Below, one piece after another: positions 26,481 through 36,231 of a stretch of DNA of 64,000 nucleotides. Numbering within the stretch: the stretch's first letter is position 1; each line of letters begins with the position of its first letter. The stretch lies in the NCBI GenBank assembly GCA_965223415.1, contig OZ245002.1:2464001-2528000 (forward strand), written 5' to 3'. This stretch comes from Myxococcota bacterium (lineage in GTDB: Bacteria; Myxococcota_A; UBA9160; UBA6930). A program made the position numbers and the translations under genes. The notes below the pieces were generated by a model. It was not told the origin of the DNA, did no database searches, and saw only the letters and a program-made list of their open reading frames with translations.

Positions 26481-27467
26481 TCAGGGGTGGAGGAGCTGGG
26501 AGGCGGGGACGGACTCGGGGCCGGTGTGGTGGCGGTCGGCGTGGAGGAGGGCACCGAGGACGCGCTGGTTGAGGGGCGTCGGGATACCGTGCTCCTCGCC
26601 GAGGGTGCAGACGCGGCGGTGGTAGGCGTCGGCCTCGGTGGCGATGCGGCGGGTGAGGGCGGACCACACCTGGTTGTAGAGGGGGATGGGCCGGGCGCTC
26701 GTGCCCTTCTCCAGGGACGCCCGCTGGTGGGCGATCTCCTCGTCGAGGGAGCGGTCGCGCCCGTCGCAGGAGCCGGCCTCGATGCCGCCCGCCGCGAGCA
26801 CGGCCCGAGCCTCCTCGAGGAGCCCGGCCTTCAGCTCGACGAAGGCGGTCGTGGTGTGGTCTTCGCGGCGGACGAGCGCGTTCGGCGCGCTCATCAGGTT
26901 GACGCAGAGCTTGAGCCACTTGTCCCGGGCGATCCGATCGGACACGCCCGTGCAGATGTCGCCGCGCTCCAGCAGGGCTGCGAGCTCACGGACGGCGTCG
27001 CTCGTCCCCGCCGGATGCAGGCCAAGGATGGCCCTCGACGGCCGATCGAAGAGGAACCGCACCCGCGCGTCTCCGGTGCGTGTGCACGTCTCGCGCCACA
27101 CGCCGCCGACGACCGGCGCCGTGAAGCGACCGGCGGCCGCCTCGTGGACGACGTCGTTCTGGAAGGTGACGAGGGGTATCCCGGGAGCGCGTTTGCCGAC
27201 GAACCGAGCCGCGGCCTCCACTTCGGCGCCGCGGGTGCAGAGCAGGATCGGCTGCGAGGGCCACCAGCCTTCCTGCTCGAGGCAACGCGCCTCGACGGAG
27301 ACCCGAAAGGTCTCTCCGCTCGCCGGGTGCTCGGCGATCAGGCCCTGGCCGAGTGCCCGCGCCGCCGCCTCCCGGCGGGTCACGAGCAGGACGCCGACGC
27401 CCGCCCGCGCCAGCCGCGCGGCAAGGGTAAGCCCGACCGAGCCCGCGCCCAGGACGGTGACGCTCAT
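26481..27467 (-). CDS. Ketopantoate reductase (ApbA/PanE) family protein
   Basis: VTVLGAGSVG Rossmann motif, FQN, KWLKLCVN, EADAY...G-x-x-HGIPTPLN. Confidence 0.85.
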   Translation of the reverse strand: MSVTVLGAGSVGLTLAARLARAGVGVLLVTRREAAARALGQGLIAEHPASGETFRVSVEARCLEQEGWWPSQPILLCTRGAEVEAAARFVGKRAPGIPLVTFQNDVVHEAAAGRFTAPVVGGVWRETCTRTGDARVRFLFDRPSRAILGLHPAGTSDAVRELAALLERGDICTGVSDRIARDKWLKLCVNLMSAPNALVRREDHTTTAFVELKAGLLEEARAVLAAGGIEAGSCDGRDRSLDEEIAHQRASLEKGTSARPIPLYNQVWSALTRRIATEADAYHRRVCTLGEEHGIPTPLNQRVLGALLHADRHHTGPESVPASQLLHP

Positions 27468-27495
27468 CGTTCGCGCTCCCGGGCGCACTCGCTGC

Positions 27496-29268
27496 TCACC
27501 GGCGCGCGCCCAGGATCGCCTTCGTCTCGATGCGTTGCTGGCCTCGCAGGACGACGAGATCGACCTCTCGCCCGGCCCGCTCGGCGAACAGCAGGGCAGC
27601 GAACTCGGCCAGGTCGCGCACGGTGACGCCGGCGAAGGAGACCAGCACGTCGCCGCCGCGCAGGCCCGCCCTCTCCGCGGGGCTCCCGGGCCGCACGCCG
27701 GCGAGGCGCACACCCACCACCGGCTCGCCGCCGAAGGCGGGAATCGTCCCCAGGTCCGGGCCATAGCCGGGTCCGCCGCCGGGGCCGGCGTGGGCCTTCG
27801 CCGGCTGGCCGCGGAAGGCGAAGGCCTCTTCCGCATTCGCCGCGGCACCGGCGACCCGGGCCACGAGGTCGCACACCCGGGCCAGCCCCCGAGCGTCGAC
27901 GGCCGACGCCACGTCGTCGGGCGTGTGATAGGCGGAGTGGACGCCGGTGAAGAAGTGCAGCACCGGAACGCTCTTCACGTAGAAGCTGGTCTGATCGGAA
28001 GGCCCCGTGCCGTGGCCCTCGAGGGCGAGGTCGAGCCCCAGCGCCGTCGCGGACGCGTCGAGCAGGGGGCGCCACTCGTCGGCGCTCTCGCTGCCGAAGA
28101 CCACGATGCGGCCCTCGCGCAGGCGCCCCACCATGTCCATGTTGAGCATCGCGACCGGCGCCGGAAGCCCTTCCGGCCGCCGGTCGACGAAGTGGGCCGA
28201 GCCGAGCAGGCCGACTTCCTCGGCCGTGAAGGCAACGAAGGTCAGCGTGCGCCGCAGCGGGGGACCGGCAGCGAGGCGCCTCGCGATCTCGAGCAACGCG
28301 GCGGTTCCCGAGGCGTTGTCGTCGGCGCCCGGATGCACCTCGCCCTGGCGCGACGGCGCGAGGGATCCGAAGCCGCCGCGCCCCAGGTGGTCGTAGTGGG
28401 CGCCGATCACGATCGCCTCGTCGGAGAGCGAGGGATCGCGGCCCGGCAGCACGCCGACGACGTTGGCCACCGGGCCCCGGGTCCGCTCGATCCGGACCTC
28501 GCCGCTCGCCTCGAGATCGAGCGTCAGGGACACAGGCTCGCCGCTGCTCGCCCGCGCCGCGAGGGACTCGAGATCCCGCCCGGCGAGGTGCAGCAGCTCC
28601 GCCGCCGCCGGACGGGACAGACGCAGGCCGAAGAGCCCCGCCGGCTGCACGTTGGGGTCCGCGGCGTGAGGGATCGCGCCGAGCTCTCTCTCGCGGGTCT
28701 CCGGGACGAAGAGCACGCCCGCGGCGCCGCGACGACGGGCCGCCATGATCTTGGCGCGGCGTCGCAGGAAGGCCACGCCCTCGGGCCCCTCGAGCGCCCC
28801 CGCCTCGGGTCGCCCCTCGAGCACGACGACCACGCGTCCGTCCACGTCGAGGTCCTGGTAGTCGTCGTGGCCGCGGTCCGGCGCCGAGATGCCGTAGCCC
28901 GCGAAGGCGAGGGGGCCCGCGAAGTGCCCGGACTCGCTGACCATCAGGGGCGCGACGGCGGCATCGCCCTCGAGCTGCAGCGCGCCCACGCGCAGCCGCG
29001 CTCCCGCGTTGCGGATGGCCACGACCGTTTCGAAGGGCTGGAGGAACCCTCCGTCGCTGCCGCCCGGCCTGAGGCCGGCTTCGGCGAAGCGACCGGCGAT
29101 GTAGCGCGCGGCGGCCTCGAGCCCCTGTGTGCCGAGTCCCCGGCCCTCTCGCTCTGGGGCCGAAAGCCAGGCGACGTCGGCTTCGAGGCGCGTCGCGCTC
29201 GGACCCGGGTGAACGCACGCCCCGGCGAGTGCGAGAAGGGACGACGCCACGACGAGCCGGAAGCTCAT
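27496..29268 (-). CDS. M28 family peptidase lipoprotein with PA and C-terminal PDZ domains
   Basis: Lipobox LAGAC, REGRGLGT, GAHYDHLG, GADDNASG, AEEVGLLGS, NMDMVGR, SDQTSF, YHTPDD, GSPAERAGL. Confidence 0.93.
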   Translation of the reverse strand: MSFRLVVASSLLALAGACVHPGPSATRLEADVAWLSAPEREGRGLGTQGLEAAARYIAGRFAEAGLRPGGSDGGFLQPFETVVAIRNAGARLRVGALQLEGDAAVAPLMVSESGHFAGPLAFAGYGISAPDRGHDDYQDLDVDGRVVVVLEGRPEAGALEGPEGVAFLRRRAKIMAARRRGAAGVLFVPETRERELGAIPHAADPNVQPAGLFGLRLSRPAAAELLHLAGRDLESLAARASSGEPVSLTLDLEASGEVRIERTRGPVANVVGVLPGRDPSLSDEAIVIGAHYDHLGRGGFGSLAPSRQGEVHPGADDNASGTAALLEIARRLAAGPPLRRTLTFVAFTAEEVGLLGSAHFVDRRPEGLPAPVAMLNMDMVGRLREGRIVVFGSESADEWRPLLDASATALGLDLALEGHGTGPSDQTSFYVKSVPVLHFFTGVHSAYHTPDDVASAVDARGLARVCDLVARVAGAAANAEEAFAFRGQPAKAHAGPGGGPGYGPDLGTIPAFGGEPVVGVRLAGVRPGSPAERAGLRGGDVLVSFAGVTVRDLAEFAALLFAERAGREVDLVVLRGQQRIETKAILGARR

Positions 29269-29297
29269 GGCCGAGCACGATAGCAGTGGAAAGCGGG

Positions 29298-29308
29298 GGA
29301 ACGTCCCC
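29298..29308 (-). repeat. Isolated family A core GGAACGTCCCC
   Basis: Exact match to the core in the 26401 and 58883 elements; intergenic. Confidence 0.45.
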
Positions 29309-29318
29309 TCCTCCCATC

Positions 29319-29831
29319 CTAGGTGGGTGCTCCCCAGGCTGCGCTTCGCGGGAGCGCCGGCAGCGCGTGCGGCCTCCCCTCGCCGCGCTCGCACCAATCG
29401 CGAATCGCCTGGAGATGGGTCGCTGCCAGACCTGTCGCGAAACGCCGGACGGCGAACCGGTCGAGGCAGCCGCCGACCAGCGGCATCTCGTTGTCGGTCG
29501 CGATCTGCAGGACAAGCTTCGTCCCGCCGGAGCGGTCGGCGGAATCGGAGAGGCCGACGGTCTGGGAGAAGTGGAACAAGCCGAGCGAGACGGCGGACTC
29601 GAGGCGGCAGGGCGGCTGCACGTGGATCGGCGTCTCGACCAGCTCCATCGGCAGATCGTGCAGCCGGCAGGACCAGCGGAAGCGTCGCCCCGCCGTTGGA
29701 TAGGAGGCTTCGGGGGTCCGCGCGGCCACGATGCCCGGGCGCCACCGGGCGACCTGGGCGGGATCGGCGAGCGCGTTCCACACGAGCGTGCGCTCGGCCT
29801 GGATCTCCGCGCCCATCACCAGCTTGATCAC
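29319..29831 (-). CDS. SRPBCC/polyketide-cyclase fold protein
   Basis: AEIQAERTLVWNALADP-x-x-x-x-RW-x-PG N-terminal SRPBCC pattern. Start uncertain. Confidence 0.7.
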   Translation of the reverse strand: MIKLVMGAEIQAERTLVWNALADPAQVARWRPGIVAARTPEASYPTAGRRFRWSCRLHDLPMELVETPIHVQPPCRLESAVSLGLFHFSQTVGLSDSADRSGGTKLVLQIATDNEMPLVGGCLDRFAVRRFATGLAATHLQAIRDWCERGEGRPHALPALPRSAAWGAPT

Positions 29832-29959
29832 GCGTTTCCGACCAACCCTTTGGAACGTCCGGATCCGTCCGGATCTCTCGTTCGGTGCAACGCGAGGCCT
29901 CCGCGTGGAGGGGGGTTGGCCGCGTGTCACCACAAAGCGTAACCGGGGAAGTGCTCGGA

Positions 29960-30970
<1,011 letters not shown>

Positions 30971-31030
30971 CGCCGCGAGGGTACACCGCCCGCGCGATGG
31001 CCGATCGGCGCCGACACCCGCCCCCGCCAA

Positions 31031-31064
31031 GGCAACGAGCGGAACCCGCCCCCAAGAGCAACGA
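31031..31064 (+). repeat. Degenerate family B REP-like element
   Basis: CAACGAGCGGAACCCGCCCCCAAGAGCAAC resembles CAACAAGCGGACCCGGCCCCCAAC (minus strand at about 46123-46146). Confidence 0.5.
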
Positions 31065-31065
31065 C

Positions 31066-31887
31066 TCAGTAGCCGAGGAAGTGGGTGGTGGCATCCAGGA
31101 CGGCGGTGGGGGCGTCGATGTGGACGTGGTGGCCGGCGCCGGGGACCTCGTGGAGCCGGCAGTCGGGGATAGCGGCGGCCATCTCGGCGGCGCCCTCGGC
31201 GGGGAGCAGCTTGCTGTCGGCGCCGCGCAGAAGCAGGGTCGGGCACTGGATGCGGGCCAGGTCCGGGCGGCGACGGGGCGGCACGCTGAACCAGTAGGGA
31301 TCGAACTTGAAGCCGAAGCGACCGTCGGGCTCGACGCGGATCGAGTGGCCGGCGATGGCGCGTCGCAGCTCCGGCGCGGCGTGGGCGGCACCCGGCAGGA
31401 AGCGGAACTTCTCGACGGCCTGCTGGCGGCTGGCGTAGGTGCGACGCAGGGTCAGGGCCAGGCGCGTCGCGCGCCGGCGGCTCGGGCTGGCTCCGCGGCT
31501 CGGATCGACGAGCACGAGGGCCGGGGTGTCGTCGGCCTCGGCGGCGTGGCCCATCGCCACGTGGGCCCCGAGCGAGTGTCCCATCAAGGTCGCCTCGGGT
31601 GCTCCGAGGTGCTCGAGCAGCGCCTCCAGGTCGTCGCCGAAGGCGCCGGCGATGCGTTCTTCCGGATGGTCCGAATCGCCGTGGCCGCGGAAGTCGAGGG
31701 CGACGACGTGGAAGCGGCGCGCGAGGGCGGGCGCCAGATGGTCCCACCAGTGAGCGTTCGCACCGGCGCCGTGCAGCAGGACGAGGCACGGCGCCCCCTC
31801 GTCACCCCAGTGGATCGCGTGGAGCTGGACGCCGCCCAACCCGGCGGTGCTGAACCGCTCCTCCCTCCCACCGCATTCGCTCTCCAT
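31066..31887 (-). CDS. Alpha/beta hydrolase
   Basis: HGAGAN, DFRGHGDS, GHSLG nucleophile elbow, GAGHHVH. Confidence 0.93.
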   Translation of the reverse strand: MESECGGREERFSTAGLGGVQLHAIHWGDEGAPCLVLLHGAGANAHWWDHLAPALARRFHVVALDFRGHGDSDHPEERIAGAFGDDLEALLEHLGAPEATLMGHSLGAHVAMGHAAEADDTPALVLVDPSRGASPSRRRATRLALTLRRTYASRQQAVEKFRFLPGAAHAAPELRRAIAGHSIRVEPDGRFGFKFDPYWFSVPPRRRPDLARIQCPTLLLRGADSKLLPAEGAAEMAAAIPDCRLHEVPGAGHHVHIDAPTAVLDATTHFLGY

Positions 31888-31972
31888 GGCGGGGCGCAAC
31901 GTATCGCAGCGGGCGCCGATCGAAAGACCCCCCGAATCAGCCCTCAGAGGGCCGATTTCGGCATTTTTTCCT

Positions 31973-32000
31973 TTGACTCCGTCGGAGGAACGCTTACCAT
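31973..32000 (+). promoter_or_regulatory. Sigma70-like promoter for the histone-fold gene
   Basis: TTGACT (31973-31978), 16-bp spacer, TACCAT (31995-32000), preceded by a T-rich tract in otherwise GC-rich DNA. GGGAGG RBS before the ATG at 32090. Confidence 0.6.
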
Positions 32001-32089
32001 TCGCAGCCTCGAACCGGGGCGTGCGGTACGCCACGGGGGGGAACACGGCCGAGCGATCTGTCGTCCTCGGCACTGGGAGGTTCAGTCAG

Positions 32090-32293
32090 ATGGCAGCACG
32101 AAGGAAGAAGGCGGCGCGCAAGCCGGCCGAGCTCATCATTTCCAAGGCCCGCACCAAGGCCGCCACGAAGAAGTGCAACGTCGGTGGCGAGTTCTACGAG
32201 GCCCTCGACAAGCAGGTGCGCGAGCTGATCAAGGACGCGGAAGCCCGCGCGATCGGCAACAAGCGCAAGACGCTGAAGGCCGTCGACCTCTAG
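32090..32293 (+). CDS. Bacterial histone-fold protein (Bd0055/HBb-like) with a basic N-terminal tail
   Basis: MAARRKKAARKPAELIISKARTKAATKKCNVGGEFYEALDKQVRELIKDAEARAIGNKRKTLKAVDL (67 aa). Has the LII-x-x-x-x-K alpha1 pattern, a long alpha2 (EAL...A...A) and the histone-fold signature RKTL-x-x-x-D. Confidence 0.85.
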   Translation: MAARRKKAARKPAELIISKARTKAATKKCNVGGEFYEALDKQVRELIKDAEARAIGNKRKTLKAVDL

Positions 32294-32306
32294 GGTCGCG
32301 CCGGAA

Positions 32307-32350
32307 GAACGAGAGCCCGCGGGGCCTTGGCCCCGCGGGCTCTTTCGTTC
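32307..32350. terminator. Strong hairpin terminator, probably bidirectional
   Basis: AGAGCCCGCGGGGCC-TT-GGCCCCGCGGGCTCT followed by TTCGTTC; between convergent genes. Confidence 0.85.
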
Positions 32351-33547
32351 TCAGTCCTCCTCTCCGCCCTCGTCCTCGCCGGTTTCCTCTTCGATGTGGA
32401 CGGGGGGCGCGGCGCGCCCCGCCGCGCGCTCCCGGTTGAAGCCGACCCGGAACAGCCGCTCCAGGGAGACGCGGCGCACCACCTCCGCGCCCGGCCGGTC
32501 GTGCTCGGCACACAGGTGGTCGAGGCCCAGGCTGGCGAAGCGCGCGGCCTTGGCGAGCGAGGCGGGGAGCGTCTCCGCGTCTCCCAGGTCGAGGTCGTCG
32601 GCCACGGCCACCCGGTTGGCCAGGGTGAGGAACTCGAGCAGTCGCGGCCGCCGCTCCTCCTCCGAGAGCGCGGCGAAGGCGCGGAACAGGCTGTAGTCCC
32701 GCTCGGCGACGGCCGGGAAGCTCGGCATCCAGACCGGGAGGGGCCAGTCCTCCAGGTCGAGGGCGCGCTCCTCCTCGGGCAGGTGGCCGACCTGGCCCTC
32801 GTCCAGGAAGGCGTAGACCGCCTTCGCCTCGTCCAGGGGCGGGAAGCCCAGATCCTGCAGGCGCCCGCCGCGCCAACGCCGCGCCCACTCCTCGGTCTCG
32901 GTCGGCAGCTCCCAGATCACCGCCTGCAGCAGGCGGAAGTAGAGCCAGTAGCTCTTCTGGAAGAGCACGCGCAAGAAGCCCAGCACCTCGTCCAGGTCGT
33001 CGTCGCTGTGCCGTGCCACCAGGTAGAACTGTCCGTCGATGGTCTGGCCGCCGGCGGGCGGGGTCCAGTCGTCGTCGCCGGAGGGCTTGAGGGTCACCTC
33101 CACCCGCTCCATCAGGAGCAGCGTCCAGGCCTCTGGATCGACGGCCTCCGAGGCGCGCAGCAGCGTCTCGTCGCCGGCGTCGGCGAAGGCCTCGAGCCAG
33201 CCCGCCAGGCGACCGCGATCCGGCAGGCCCGCGCGCCATCCGTCGAGGTCGATGCAGGCGGTGATCTGCTCCGGCGTGGCGTGCTCGAGGATCCACCCGG
33301 CGTCGGCCAGCCCGACCGCCTTGGCCGTGAAGCACAGCTCCGCCGGGGGCAGGCGCGGGATCAATCGCGCCGGCTCCGCCGCCAACCCGAGGAGCTCGCC
33401 GCGGCGGCCGACCGGGGTCTCGCAGACGAGGGCCACCTGGGCGTCGAGGGGGTGCTCGGCCAGGACCTCTCGGGCGGCGGTGCGGTCGGTGCGGGCCAGC
33501 TCCAGGATGCGGCGCGCCTGGGGCGGGGGAAGCAAGGGGGTTCCCAT
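32351..33547 (-). CDS. DUF6178 family protein
   Basis: DLDGW, LAGWLEAF, EEWA-x-RWR-x-GRLQDLGFP, LANRVAVAD, LERLFRVG. Confidence 0.75.
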   Translation of the reverse strand: MGTPLLPPPQARRILELARTDRTAAREVLAEHPLDAQVALVCETPVGRRGELLGLAAEPARLIPRLPPAELCFTAKAVGLADAGWILEHATPEQITACIDLDGWRAGLPDRGRLAGWLEAFADAGDETLLRASEAVDPEAWTLLLMERVEVTLKPSGDDDWTPPAGGQTIDGQFYLVARHSDDDLDEVLGFLRVLFQKSYWLYFRLLQAVIWELPTETEEWARRWRGGRLQDLGFPPLDEAKAVYAFLDEGQVGHLPEEERALDLEDWPLPVWMPSFPAVAERDYSLFRAFAALSEEERRPRLLEFLTLANRVAVADDLDLGDAETLPASLAKAARFASLGLDHLCAEHDRPGAEVVRRVSLERLFRVGFNRERAAGRAAPPVHIEEETGEDEGGEED

Positions 33548-33626
33548 CGCCGCGGATCGTAGCCCGCGAGGGCAGCGGGGGGAGTCCTTGGCCTTCAGGC
33601 GCAGTGCTATCGTCCGCCCGTTCGCC

Positions 33627-34943
33627 GTGGCAGCCGCGTCGCCCCAACCCTCGTCTCGCTCCGCGCTGCGTGCCGCCAGCGGCGCCGCTGCGCTGCCCGC
33701 GCTGCTCGCTGCGAGCGCGACGGGTCTGGGCGCCGGCGGCGCCTTCTGGTGGACGATCGGCGCCGGGTGGATCGCTGTGTCCGCACTCCTGGGCGGATTC
33801 GTCCTCCGCCGCGGGCCGCTCAGGCTGTGGTGGCTCGGGCAGGCGGCGGCCGGCGTCGTGTTGGCCCTGGCCGTCGGGGCGTTCCATGCCGCGGCCGCGG
33901 GCTCCGGGCCGAGCGTTCCCGACGTCCATCGCACGCTCGCCCTCGACGTCGATGCGGGTGTGGCCCTCGACCCGGAGCTGAGCTGCGAGCCCGGCGTGCG
34001 CGCGGGCGCGGCGCTCGCGAGCCCCGGTGCCCATCCCCGGCTCGGCTCGAAGGGGGAGCGGCTCTGGTTCGACGCGCCGGGCCCGGAAGGCCGGCGCCAG
34101 ATCCACCTGCTGGAGGGGCCGGACCGTGACGCGCCGCGTGCGCGTTGCTGGACCTGCGGCGAGCCGGGCGAGAACCGTCGCCCGGCGCCGAACCCCTACG
34201 GCGAAGGCGTGCTGTTCGAATCCGACCGAAACGGGAGCGTCGATGTCTTCGTCGCGGAGACGCGCGAGCGCAGGCGGGGGCGCCTCCCTTCTCGCCGCGT
34301 CACGCAGCTCGCGTCCGCGGACCGCTTTCCGATCTTCGAGGCGGGAGGTCGGGGGCTCGTGTGGTCCACCGGCGATGCGGGGCGCTTCGCCGTGGAGGCT
34401 GCGGGCATGGCCACAGGGCACGGCGGCCTCGTCCTCGGAGCCCGGCGCCGGCTGATCGCCGGTGGCCGCGCCTGGGTGGCGCCGCTCGCCTGGTCGCCGG
34501 ACGCGCGCTCCCTGGTCTACGCCCGCGGCGCCGGGCCCGGCGCCTTCGAGGGGCGACTCCTCGATCCGGCGACCGGCGACGAGCGCTCCCTCGGTCCCCT
34601 CGTGGCGGCCTCGTTCTCGCGGGACGGACGGCTCCTCGCCGTCGCCAGCGAGGAAGGACGGGGAACGGGCCCCGCCGGCCTCGGATTCCTGCTGGCGCGG
34701 CTCCCCGGCGAAGGCGGGGTGGGCGAAGGGCAGCCCGGGCGCAGCGTCCTCCTCATCGGCTCGCCCGACGCAGCGCTCGCCGCGGTCGACCTCGGCCCGG
34801 TCGCCGACTGGGGTGCGCCGACCGGCGTCGCCCTCGCACCCGACGGCCGATCACTCGTGCTGGGCCAGTGGCGCCGGAGCGCGAACGGCGGCCGGGAGGA
34901 GCGGCTCATCCGGCTGCTGCGGAGCTGCTCCGTCCGGCCGTAG
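33627..34943 (+). CDS. Membrane-anchored TolB/PD40-like beta-propeller protein
   Basis: Three N-terminal TM segments, CWTC, FESDRNG, WSPDARSLVY, FSRDGRLL and LAPDGRSL repeats. Start uncertain. Confidence 0.7.
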   Translation: MAAASPQPSSRSALRAASGAAALPALLAASATGLGAGGAFWWTIGAGWIAVSALLGGFVLRRGPLRLWWLGQAAAGVVLALAVGAFHAAAAGSGPSVPDVHRTLALDVDAGVALDPELSCEPGVRAGAALASPGAHPRLGSKGERLWFDAPGPEGRRQIHLLEGPDRDAPRARCWTCGEPGENRRPAPNPYGEGVLFESDRNGSVDVFVAETRERRRGRLPSRRVTQLASADRFPIFEAGGRGLVWSTGDAGRFAVEAAGMATGHGGLVLGARRRLIAGGRAWVAPLAWSPDARSLVYARGAGPGAFEGRLLDPATGDERSLGPLVAASFSRDGRLLAVASEEGRGTGPAGLGFLLARLPGEGGVGEGQPGRSVLLIGSPDAALAAVDLGPVADWGAPTGVALAPDGRSLVLGQWRRSANGGREERLIRLLRSCSVRP

Positions 34944-34952
34944 CTCTCACGC

Positions 34953-36188
34953 CTACCACGCGTGGAGGCGAACGGGCAGGTACGAGTAGCCCTTCACGAA
35001 GTTCGAGCGCACCCGACGCGGCGCTCCCACGACCTCGATCTCCCGGAACCGCGCCAGCGCTTCCTCCCAGAGGACGCGCAGCTGCATCTCGGCCAGGCGA
35101 CTGCCCATGCAGAAGTGGACGCCGAGCCCGAAGGCGAGGTGCTGCTTCGCGTTCGGGCGATCGATCCGAAGGGCATCGGGCTCGTCGAAGACCGATTCGT
35201 CGCGGTTCGCCGAGACGTACCACATGACGACCTTGTCGCCTTTGGCGATCGGCTTGCCGCCGAGCTCCGTGTCCCGGGTGGCTGTTCGGCGCATGTGCGC
35301 GAGGGGCGTCTGCCAGCGGATGATCTCGCTCACCATGTTCGGGATGAGGCCCGGATCGTCGCGCAGCTTCTGGTACTCCTCCGGGTACTCGTTCAGGGCG
35401 AGGACACCGCCGGAGATCGAGTTCCGCGTCGTGTCGTTACCGCCCACGATGAGCAGCATCAGGGTCCCGAGGTACTCCATGGGGTCCATGGCACGGGTCG
35501 CCTCGGCATTGGCGAGCGCCGTGATGAAGTCGAGCCGCTCGGAGGGCGGCCGATCCTGGCGCTGCTCCCAGAGAGCCGTGAACTCCCGGAGGCACTCCAT
35601 GAGCGCCGTCCGGCGCTCCTCCTCGGTGGCGTCGCCGGAGCCGACCTGCAGGGGGCTCGCCGTCGCCATGTCCGACCAGTGGGTCAGTTTGCGGCGCTCC
35701 TCGTACGGGAAGTCGAAGAGCGTGGCGAGCATCCCGGTGGTGAGCTCGATCGAGACGCGATCGACCCAGTCGAAGGTCTCACCGACGGGGAGGGCGTCGA
35801 GGATCTCCCGCGCGCGCTCCCGGATCACGGGCTCGAGGACGGTCAGGTTTCGGGGGGAGGCGACCGGCTGCACGACCTTGCGATGGGCGGTGTGCTTCGG
35901 TCCGTCCATCGTGATGAAGCCCGATTCCAGGGGGAAGGCCGGGTCCGGATCGCCGACGACGATGCTGCGCGCGGAGGAGTAGGTCTCCGGGTCCTTCTCC
36001 ACGCTCACGACGTCGTCGTAGCGAGTCACCGACCAGTAGGGACCGAAGGCACTCTCGGGGCAACGGTGAACCGGGTCCTCTTCGCGCAGGCGTGCGAAGT
36101 AGCCCCAATGGGTGTCCGTCTCGAAGAGCTCGGAATCCGAGACGTCGATCTTCTCGAGAGGAATGGAACGAGGATCGGGTTGGCTCAT
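34953..36188 (-). CDS. Cytochrome P450 (CYP153-like)
   Basis: FGPYWSVTRY, LLIVGGNDTTRNS, EIIRWQTPLAHMRR, heme motif FGLGVHFCMG. Confidence 0.96.
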   Translation of the reverse strand: MSQPDPRSIPLEKIDVSDSELFETDTHWGYFARLREEDPVHRCPESAFGPYWSVTRYDDVVSVEKDPETYSSARSIVVGDPDPAFPLESGFITMDGPKHTAHRKVVQPVASPRNLTVLEPVIRERAREILDALPVGETFDWVDRVSIELTTGMLATLFDFPYEERRKLTHWSDMATASPLQVGSGDATEEERRTALMECLREFTALWEQRQDRPPSERLDFITALANAEATRAMDPMEYLGTLMLLIVGGNDTTRNSISGGVLALNEYPEEYQKLRDDPGLIPNMVSEIIRWQTPLAHMRRTATRDTELGGKPIAKGDKVVMWYVSANRDESVFDEPDALRIDRPNAKQHLAFGLGVHFCMGSRLAEMQLRVLWEEALARFREIEVVGAPRRVRSNFVKGYSYLPVRLHAW

Positions 36189-36231
36189 GGTGCTGTCTCC
36201 TACACCCTGGGAGAGTAGCTATCGTGTCGCA

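Follow-up and report, generated by a model that had tools for sequence, protein, structure and literature searches.

What does the short gene at the centre of this locus encode: a true bacterial histone and, if so, a histone of which class, with what role for its basic N-terminal extension? The gene is located at 32090-32293 on the forward strand of the window, i.e. the whole 64,000-nucleotide stretch analysed here (positions 2,464,001-2,528,000 of contig OZ245002.1, assembly GCA_965223415.1, from a Myxococcota bacterium). It begins with ATG at 32090, ends with TAG at 32291-32293, and contains 67 codons, specifying a 7.4-kDa protein with an isoelectric point of ~10.3 (19 K+R vs. 8 D+E residues). 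A first-pass annotation of this DNA had described the same basic 67-aa open reading frame (ORF) as a stand-alone gene for what may be a tailed histone, and the same protein was recovered here at the same coordinates. The protein is a bacterial histone of the alpha3-truncated superfamily. As for its function, the reading that we favour, with a probability of roughly 0.78, is a nucleoid-associated histone of the face-to-face (FtF) class, like HLp of Leptospira perolatii and HTkC of Thermococcus kodakarensis, that forms a DNA-wrapping tetramer with an electrostatic tail. The gene is divided as follows.

32090-32128, + strand: codons 1-13, basic N-terminal tail, predicted to be disordered (6 K/R, no acidic residue)
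32129-32290, + strand: codons 14-67, alpha3-truncated histone fold with the FtF signature R53, N57, R59, T61, and D66
32291-32293, + strand: stop codon TAG

The histone relationship was found by searches against PDB sequences and structures. Phmmer with the single sequence returned only two histones, HTkC (9F2C, E = 9.8e-4) and HLp (9QT0, E = 0.019), and a profile constructed from 61 diverse relatives matched HTkC (E = 4.6e-17), HLp (1.8e-14), HBb/Bd0055 of Bdellovibrio bacteriovorus (1.3e-11), and HmvA (7.2e-6), followed at a distance by NF-YB and HMfA (about 0.02-0.03; 0.027 for HMfA) and by H4 and H2B (near 0.7-0.9). The AlphaFold2 (AF2) model computed from the 61-row diverse alignment has a pLDDT (predicted local distance difference test score) of 82.4 and contains alpha1 at residues 19-25, alpha2 at 33-56, and a one-turn alpha3 at 64-66. 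Alpha2 is 24 residues long, only residues 64-66 are helical after loop 2, and the protein ends at residue 67. It thereby agrees with the definition of the alpha3-truncated superfamily (Schwab et al. 2024), in which alpha3 is cut down to 3-4 residues and alpha2 is shorter than that of nucleosomal histones. The eight best Foldseek matches are all HTkC, HLp, or HBb (probability 1.00; TM-score to target, 0.74-0.83; root-mean-square deviation [rmsd], 1.6-2.3), with H4 and NF-Y next. The RxTxxxxD clamp corresponds to R59, T61, and D66, of which R59 is conserved at 90% or more and the other two are invariant among the 61 diverse sequences. These searches, which the first-pass annotation had named as the way to examine its claim of a histone fold with an RKT-x-x-x-x-D signature, thus support both the fold and the signature. 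The full-length alpha3 and the hypernucleosome interface of the nucleosomal HMfA/B type are not found in the protein, in line with its truncated alpha3 and the HMfA E-value given above.

The N-terminal tail was surveyed in 81 genes, i.e. the window gene and 80 related loci (L008-L087). The loci were kept from 414 stretches encoding a relative on contigs of a one-genome-per-species collection; all are from metagenome-assembled genomes (MAGs), mostly labelled Myxococcota or Deltaproteobacteria, with some labelled Latescibacterota, Krumholzibacteriia, Eisenbacteria, Planctomycetota, or Spirochaetales. Every one of the 81 genes has 8-20 tail residues ahead of the histone core (median length, 16 residues; median K+R content, 7). 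Its beginning follows the pattern MAA[RK][RK] in 69 genes and its end is marked by a Pro-Ala/Val-Glu/Asp (P-[AV]-[ED]) hinge in 55, while the middle of the tail varies in both length and sequence. In the window protein, the tail comprises 13 residues, with six K/R among the first 12, and carries a net charge of +6 per chain, or +24 per tetramer.

The start ATG is shared by all 74 of the homologous genes that could be parsed. An alternative upstream start, the in-frame GTG at 31847, was rejected on the grounds that the homologues use the position of ATG 32090 and that a Shine-Dalgarno (SD) sequence stands in front of it. A true start further downstream, which the first-pass annotation had considered as a means by which the tail might be lost, is excluded because no in-frame ATG, GTG, or TTG occurs between codon 1 and V43. 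Among the relatives, all four alanine codons are used for Ala3 and eight codons for the basic residue at position 4, indicating that selection acts on the tail as protein and not on the DNA. On the sequence evidence, the basic N-terminal tail is translated and conserved, as had been proposed from the window alone, and the survey of orthologs suggested at that stage found no tail-less member among the 81 genes. The second codon (32093-32095) is GCA in 52 of the 74 genes despite their G+C-rich genomes, which may reflect a translation-initiation preference.

In the AF2 model, pLDDT averages 55 over residues 1-10, and in a model of four copies no tail residue is among the confident contacts. We propose that the tail would act as a flexible electrostatic arm that raises the affinity for DNA and may reach neighbouring duplexes, the four tails of a tetramer bringing their charge of about +24 close to the DNA path. 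The tail could instead be chiefly regulatory, its lysines, or its N-terminus after removal of Met, being acetylated or methylated so as to adjust chromatin in the manner of eukaryotic H3 and H4. We consider this unlikely, even though the tail is K/R-rich and predicted to be disordered, its MAA[RK][RK] start recurs in MAGs labelled as other phyla while the mid-tail varies, and such tails have been termed 'H3-like' by Schwab et al. 2024 (PMC11390915). No modifying enzyme adjoins the gene, its neighbours being a hydrolase, a DUF6178 protein, a beta-eliminating lyase, and a P450, and the conserved neighbourhood of the histone gene yielded no candidate for one. The string KAARK, whose resemblance to the H3K27 context had been suspected at first pass to reflect low complexity, is present in only 9 of the 81 tails; the suspicion proved justified, and we reject KAARK as an H3K27-like motif, regarding it as a coincidence of low complexity. 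The electrostatic arm also fits better than a site-specific code because K and R interchange freely and tail length varies from 8 to 20 residues. A more specific proposal, that the conserved Met-Ala-Ala-basic-basic-Lys start and the Pro-Ala/Val-Glu hinge constitute a recognition element beyond generic charge, is highly doubtful. Were it true, the element would be read by an N-terminal- or lysine-modifying enzyme or by a partner protein, and these uncultured bacteria would possess regulated, histone-tail-based control of chromatin that arose independently of eukaryotes.

The assignment to the FtF class depends on the residues that pair the dimers. According to Schwab et al. 2024, alpha3-truncated histones split into FtF histones, which form a torus-shaped tetramer via the logo residues R48 and N52, and HBb-type bacterial dimers, which lack both residues. 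The complete FtF logo (R48, N52, R54, T56, and D61) is present in the window protein with identical spacing as R53, N57, R59, T61, and D66. All five are unchanged throughout the 31 close homologues, conserved at 90% or more in the 61 diverse sequences, and present in all 81 genes. HBb has other residues in the R53 and N57 columns of the profile alignment, and the R45A mutant of HTkC, altered at the equivalent of R53, behaves as an HBb-like dimer (bioRxiv 10.64898/2025.12.06.692711).

Prediction of four copies gave an ipSAE of 0.88, compared with 0.00 for the best of three controls. Of the proteins solved as pairs, 20 of 30 attain this mark, as does 1 of 23 of those solved as single chains; the calibration was based on two copies and not on four. 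Contact agreement between the runs is 98% or higher, with a partner pLDDT of at least 83. The model contains a handshake dimer with alpha2-alpha2 contacts 39-43, 39-47, and 43-43 at an expected error of 0.4 A, and a second, dimer-dimer interface formed by residues 52-53, 56-57, 59, and 65-66, i.e. the FtF residues. One copy was scored, and closure of both faces into a torus would be a putative feature of the model.

These data bear on the possibility that the protein is an HBb/Bd0055-type histone, which would be dimeric, bend DNA or coat it in straight form, and build no tetramer able to wrap DNA. The homology to HBb is clear (TM-score, 0.74-0.78, in addition to its profile match), a short alpha2 and a truncated alpha3 are common to both proteins, and Schwab et al. 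2024 list bacterial dimers in Myxococcota_A. HTkC and HLp nevertheless outscore HBb in the profile search, and the protein is not filed as HBb type because R53 and N57, the equivalents of the two residues missing from bacterial dimers, are present and invariant and a confident contact between dimers is predicted on exactly these two residues. We therefore consider the HBb-type reading decidedly unlikely. The pattern of Bd0055/HBb, which the protein was first said to follow, accordingly holds at the level of homology, whereas HTkC and HLp are closer and share the FtF residues.

In the FtF mechanism that we favour, two chains would pair in an antiparallel alpha2 handshake and two such dimers would join via R53, N57, R59, and D66, both steps being taken from the computed models. 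The closed tetramer would bind DNA non-specifically around its rim and, by analogy with HLp, wrap roughly 60 bp, with DNA contacts provided by the start of alpha1 (S18, K19, and R21), loop 1 (G33), and loop 2 (K60 and T61). HLp assembles into stable tetramers, wraps ~60 bp, and alters the organisation of the nucleoid in E. coli (Hu et al. 2025, PMC12701072). Among its nine DNA-contact positions, five are identical or conservatively replaced in the window protein (S18, K19, R21, G33, and T61), and a sixth, T56 in HLp, is the basic residue K60.

Several points weigh against this mechanism. The remaining three contact positions are changed, A13, K21, and T27 of HLp being replaced by I17, A25, and V31. 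HTkC and HLp differ from each other in their higher-order behaviour on DNA (bioRxiv 10.64898/2025.12.06.692711), so that wrapping of ~60 bp, an analogy, may not transfer to the Myxococcota protein. The predicted tetramer may reproduce, from the predictor's memory, the solved tetramers of HTkC and HLp (9F2C and 9QT0); because such similar tetramers exist, the four-copy pass shows likeness and possibly memory, and its calibration was made with two copies, as stated above. Charge and predicted disorder are the only properties from which we infer the role of the tail, and the first six residues of HLp are simply invisible in its crystals (Hu et al. 2025). With regard to the fold itself, the very small size of the protein keeps the Foldseek E-values modest (3e-3 or weaker, none reaching 1e-3), and a first AF2 model computed from 31 near-identical sequences had a pLDDT of 63.5 and gave no Foldseek match. 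Pfam and NCBIfam assign no family to the protein, and no histone family appeared even at E-values up to 10. Similarly, the PF09123 (DUF1931) profile, searched over the whole genome, gave no match at the histone locus, and the gathering thresholds of PF09123 and CBFD_NFYB_HMF (PF00808) were not reached.

The distribution of the gene was examined in a protein database and in 300 further genomes sampled from the phylum. The database yielded 1443 homologues at E-values up to 1e-3 among 1448 candidates, the best 120 of which are 79-100% identical to the window protein and 66-91 aa long. Close homologues are labelled 'histone H3/H4' (JGI) or 'DUF1931 domain-containing' (NCBI) in their sources; these are labels and not tests. 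In the phylum sample, the histone was identified, at E-values of 1e-21 or better, in all but one of the 57 genomes belonging to its class (56/57), including 8/8 genomes of the same family, 46/47 of the same order, and 10/10 sister-family genomes within the class. The one same-order genome that gave no histone match is 99% complete and consists of 820 contigs. Elsewhere in the phylum, matches were found in 34 of 243 genomes, with much weaker scores. The source genome (5.83 Mb, one contig) contains a single histone gene and two HU/IHF-family genes. The histone is thus a core, single-copy gene of its class. Many genomes of the same order (e.g. G057, G078, G148, and G223) contain two or three alpha3-histone matches, one with an E-value of ~1e-27 and paralogues with values of 1e-8 to 1e-11.

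The gene is embedded in a compact cassette between two oppositely oriented neighbours, the elements of which are as follows.

31066-31887, - strand: divergent alpha/beta hydrolase gene (Pfam Abhydrolase_6/_1; domain from residue 96 of the long ORF)
31964-31972, + strand: T-tract, UP-element-like (putative function), directly 5' of the -35 element in a context of ~66% G+C
31973-32000, + strand: sigma70-like promoter, TTGACT-16 nt-TACCAT, from a motif scan, recurring in relatives
32075-32080, + strand: SD sequence GGGAGG, 9 nt before the ATG
32306-32351, no strand assigned: 20-bp GC-rich hairpin between convergent genes, likely a bidirectional intrinsic terminator
32351-33934, - strand: convergent DUF6178 gene with an acidic C-terminus (PF19676, E = 9.6e-72)

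The promoter, which agrees with the sigma70 consensus at 9 of 12 positions, is the sole sigma70-like match in 31500-32800, where 50 shuffles give an expectation of 0.0. The same architecture (TTGACN, a spacer of 16-18 nt, and TAnnnT, preceded by a T-tract) was identified in 44 of the 80 related genes, all of which have sufficient upstream DNA, at 42-167 nt upstream of the ATG; a separate count gave 41/73. In relatives with this pattern, the 24 nt upstream of the -35 element average 48% A+T, compared with 34% across the loci. An SD-like GGAG, GAGG, or AGGA is present at -20 to -4 relative to the ATG in 71 of the 74 parsed relatives. The hairpin is followed by a T-rich stretch and has a folding energy of -42.2 kcal/mol (z = -4.6), which was equalled by none of 200 shuffles, and a downstream hairpin at least 8 kcal/mol stabler than random windows of the same locus was found in 58 of 79 relatives. 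The promoter, SD, and terminator signals exceed chance because all recur in relatives, in agreement with the first-pass annotation, which had listed a sigma70-like promoter, a ribosome-binding site, and a strong terminator.

Terminator-like sites were called at 32306-32351 on both strands, and the 3' end of the hairpin touches the stop codon of the DUF6178 gene; the hairpin probably serves both the histone and the DUF6178 genes. The histone gene would be transcribed alone, from its conserved and strong-looking promoter, because the upstream gene is divergent and the downstream gene convergent, and the monocistronic layout described at first pass holds. Judged from these signals, high expression of the gene is plausible. 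A look-up of sequencing runs containing 31000-34000 gave no RNA run; it gave five runs of DNA or of unknown kind, from two studies, that contain all or part of this region as contigs. The remaining alternative, a low-abundance, specific DNA- or RNA-binding factor built on a histone fold, would be compatible with the occurrence of this fold in transcription factors such as NF-Y, a weak profile and fold match here, but is very improbable given that the closest relatives to have been characterised (HLp, the L. interrogans protein, and HTkC) are abundant, non-specific nucleoid proteins, that the gene is near-universal and conserved in its class (identity of at least 79% among the best 120 of the 1443 homologues; 56/57 genomes), and that it has a conserved, near-consensus -35 element with a T-tract, a strong SD sequence, and its own terminator.

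The 5' leader of ~89 nt showed no significant fold (z = -0.19). A riboregulator in the leader was also considered and rejected: an Rfam search at E-values up to 1 gave 12 matches, all far under the gathering scores and most of them resembling the terminator hairpin. Long overlapping frames crowd both strands of 26686-36218, e.g. a 555-aa frame at 30772-32439 on the + strand that spans the histone gene. These frames are stop-poor artefacts of high-G+C DNA and not genes.

The listed ORF of the hydrolase (31066-32073) runs to a GTG at 32073 and thus overlaps the histone promoter. Its true start is probably the ATG at 31887, since sequence conservation begins there, which would leave a divergent intergenic region of 202 nt. 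The hydrolase is the upstream divergent neighbour in 51 of the 80 related loci, and DUF6178 is the downstream convergent neighbour in 56. A functional link between the histone and DUF6178, for example with the latter, given its acidic C-terminus, as a possible chaperone, was considered and rejected: the two genes are convergent, their adjacency is missing in loci labelled as other phyla, and DUF6178 occurs without the histone. The latter gene was found in 199 of 301 genomes of the phylum, including histone-less families such as f15 (DUF6178 in 24/26 genomes vs. the histone in 0/26) and f17 (23/23 vs. 0/23). The order hydrolase-histone-DUF6178 is therefore read as an inherited gene order and not as a partnership, because DUF6178 is common without the histone and the genes are convergent. 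The DUF6178 proteins of this class align to no more than positions ~4-351 of the Pfam model, which has 561 positions; in the rest of the phylum the alignment is full-length (8-560).

Clustering of the wider family at 50% gave 325 clusters at E-values up to 1e-3, including tail-less forms of 55-56 aa, forms with K/A/T-rich tails of ~45 residues, and doublets of ~120 aa. Distant relatives P0147, P0161, P0155, P0163, and P0170 carry N-terminal tails of ~30-47 residues composed of K/A/T/P/R repeats, which resemble the linker-histone-like tails of other bacterial nucleoid proteins. The alpha3 histones of the doublet (pseudodimer) type are P0172, P0183, P0197, P0201, P0202, P0208, and P0217. One genome of the same family contains two tandem singlet copies (G188:C50:163422-163796), which could be a snapshot of how doublets originate.

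MAGs labelled Eisenbacteria, Latescibacterota, Krumholzibacteriia, and Planctomycetota encode histones 70-85% identical to that of the window. The loci with labels of other phyla are L023, L039, L045, L052, L067, L072, L073, L075, L078, and L086. They are devoid of the Myxococcota-type neighbours, and most of them, but not L023, L039, L073, L075, and L078, have the MAA-basic start. Such high identity across phylum labels points to very strong constraint, horizontal transfer, or mislabelling of MAGs.

To our knowledge, bacterial histones have been recognised only in 2023-2025, and those studied so far are HBb, HLp, and the L. interrogans protein. The window gene adds a well-defined member with complete genome context from a large, entirely uncultured Myxococcota-type subfamily, this context consisting of a single gene for a histone, two for HU/IHF proteins, and a clean cassette running from promoter to terminator. 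With its 67 aa, a minimal tail of 13 residues, and tail-less natural relatives, it would also be a useful construct for probing bacterial histone tails. Low-complexity, K/A/P/T-rich, presumably disordered DNA-binding extensions are also present in the C-terminal repeats of actinobacterial HupB and in chlamydial Hc1; the folds are unrelated and no homology is implied. Versions of such extensions of ~45 residues are found in P0147 and P0161, two of the distant relatives of the histone.

By TM-score and rmsd, the structure is matched best by HLp (PDB 9QT0-9QT2; Hu et al. 2025, PMC12701072), which has an orthologue in L. interrogans (TM-score to target for HLp, 0.81-0.83; rmsd, 1.6-1.7; 29% identity). 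HLp and the window protein are bacterial proteins of ~63-67 aa, and they share the short alpha2, the one-turn alpha3, the RxTxxxxD clamp, and the R and N of the tetramer interface. HLp also has a short N-terminal extension, disordered in its crystals; this extension (~9 residues before the core) is not K/R-rich in the aligned stretch, in contrast to the six K/R in 12 residues seen here. Its host belongs to the Spirochaetota, whereas the present subfamily comes from Myxococcota-labelled MAGs. HTkC (PDB 9F2C) is the best sequence match in the PDB in both the single-sequence and profile searches. It forms a torus-shaped tetramer, and its tetramerisation residue R45 aligns with R53. HTkC differs in being archaeal and tail-less (59 aa) and in having E in place of N57, and it has a hyper-compaction state that is absent from HLp (bioRxiv 10.64898/2025.12.06.692711). 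Bd0055/HBb (8CMP, 8FVX, 9EZZ, and 9F0E) belongs to the same alpha3-truncated superfamily, is of similar size, and has the RKT...D signature; it differs in acting as a dimer that bends or coats DNA, in lacking the R and N interface residues, and in its low identity (22-24%). It also has no tail, as the first-pass annotation had stated, its sequence starting directly at the core in the alignment.

The same annotation had regarded a tailed bacterial histone as unusual. Such tails had already been described by Schwab et al. 2024, according to whom bacterial FtF histones are distributed over Myxococcota, Planctomycetota, Spirochaetota, and Bacteriovoracia and commonly have tails, most of them positively charged; the same paper states that no sequence of these tails is conserved across bacteria. 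The phyletic statement, including Myxococcota, is repeated by Hu et al. 2025, and Hocher et al. 2023 describe long tails as absent from most bacterial singlets. No experimental study of a bacterial histone tail was found in the literature searched. A tailed FtF histone in Myxococcota is thus already in print, and the current picture is unchanged. The window gene fits the description of the catalogued tailed FtF histones, and its subfamily retains in addition the MAA[RK][RK] start (69/81) and the P-[AV]-[ED] hinge (55/81). This conservation of the first five or six residues and of the hinge within the subfamily is the sole refinement that the present data bring to the catalogue, and it may already be visible in the supplementary tail figures (13, 19, and 20) published by Schwab et al. 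2024.

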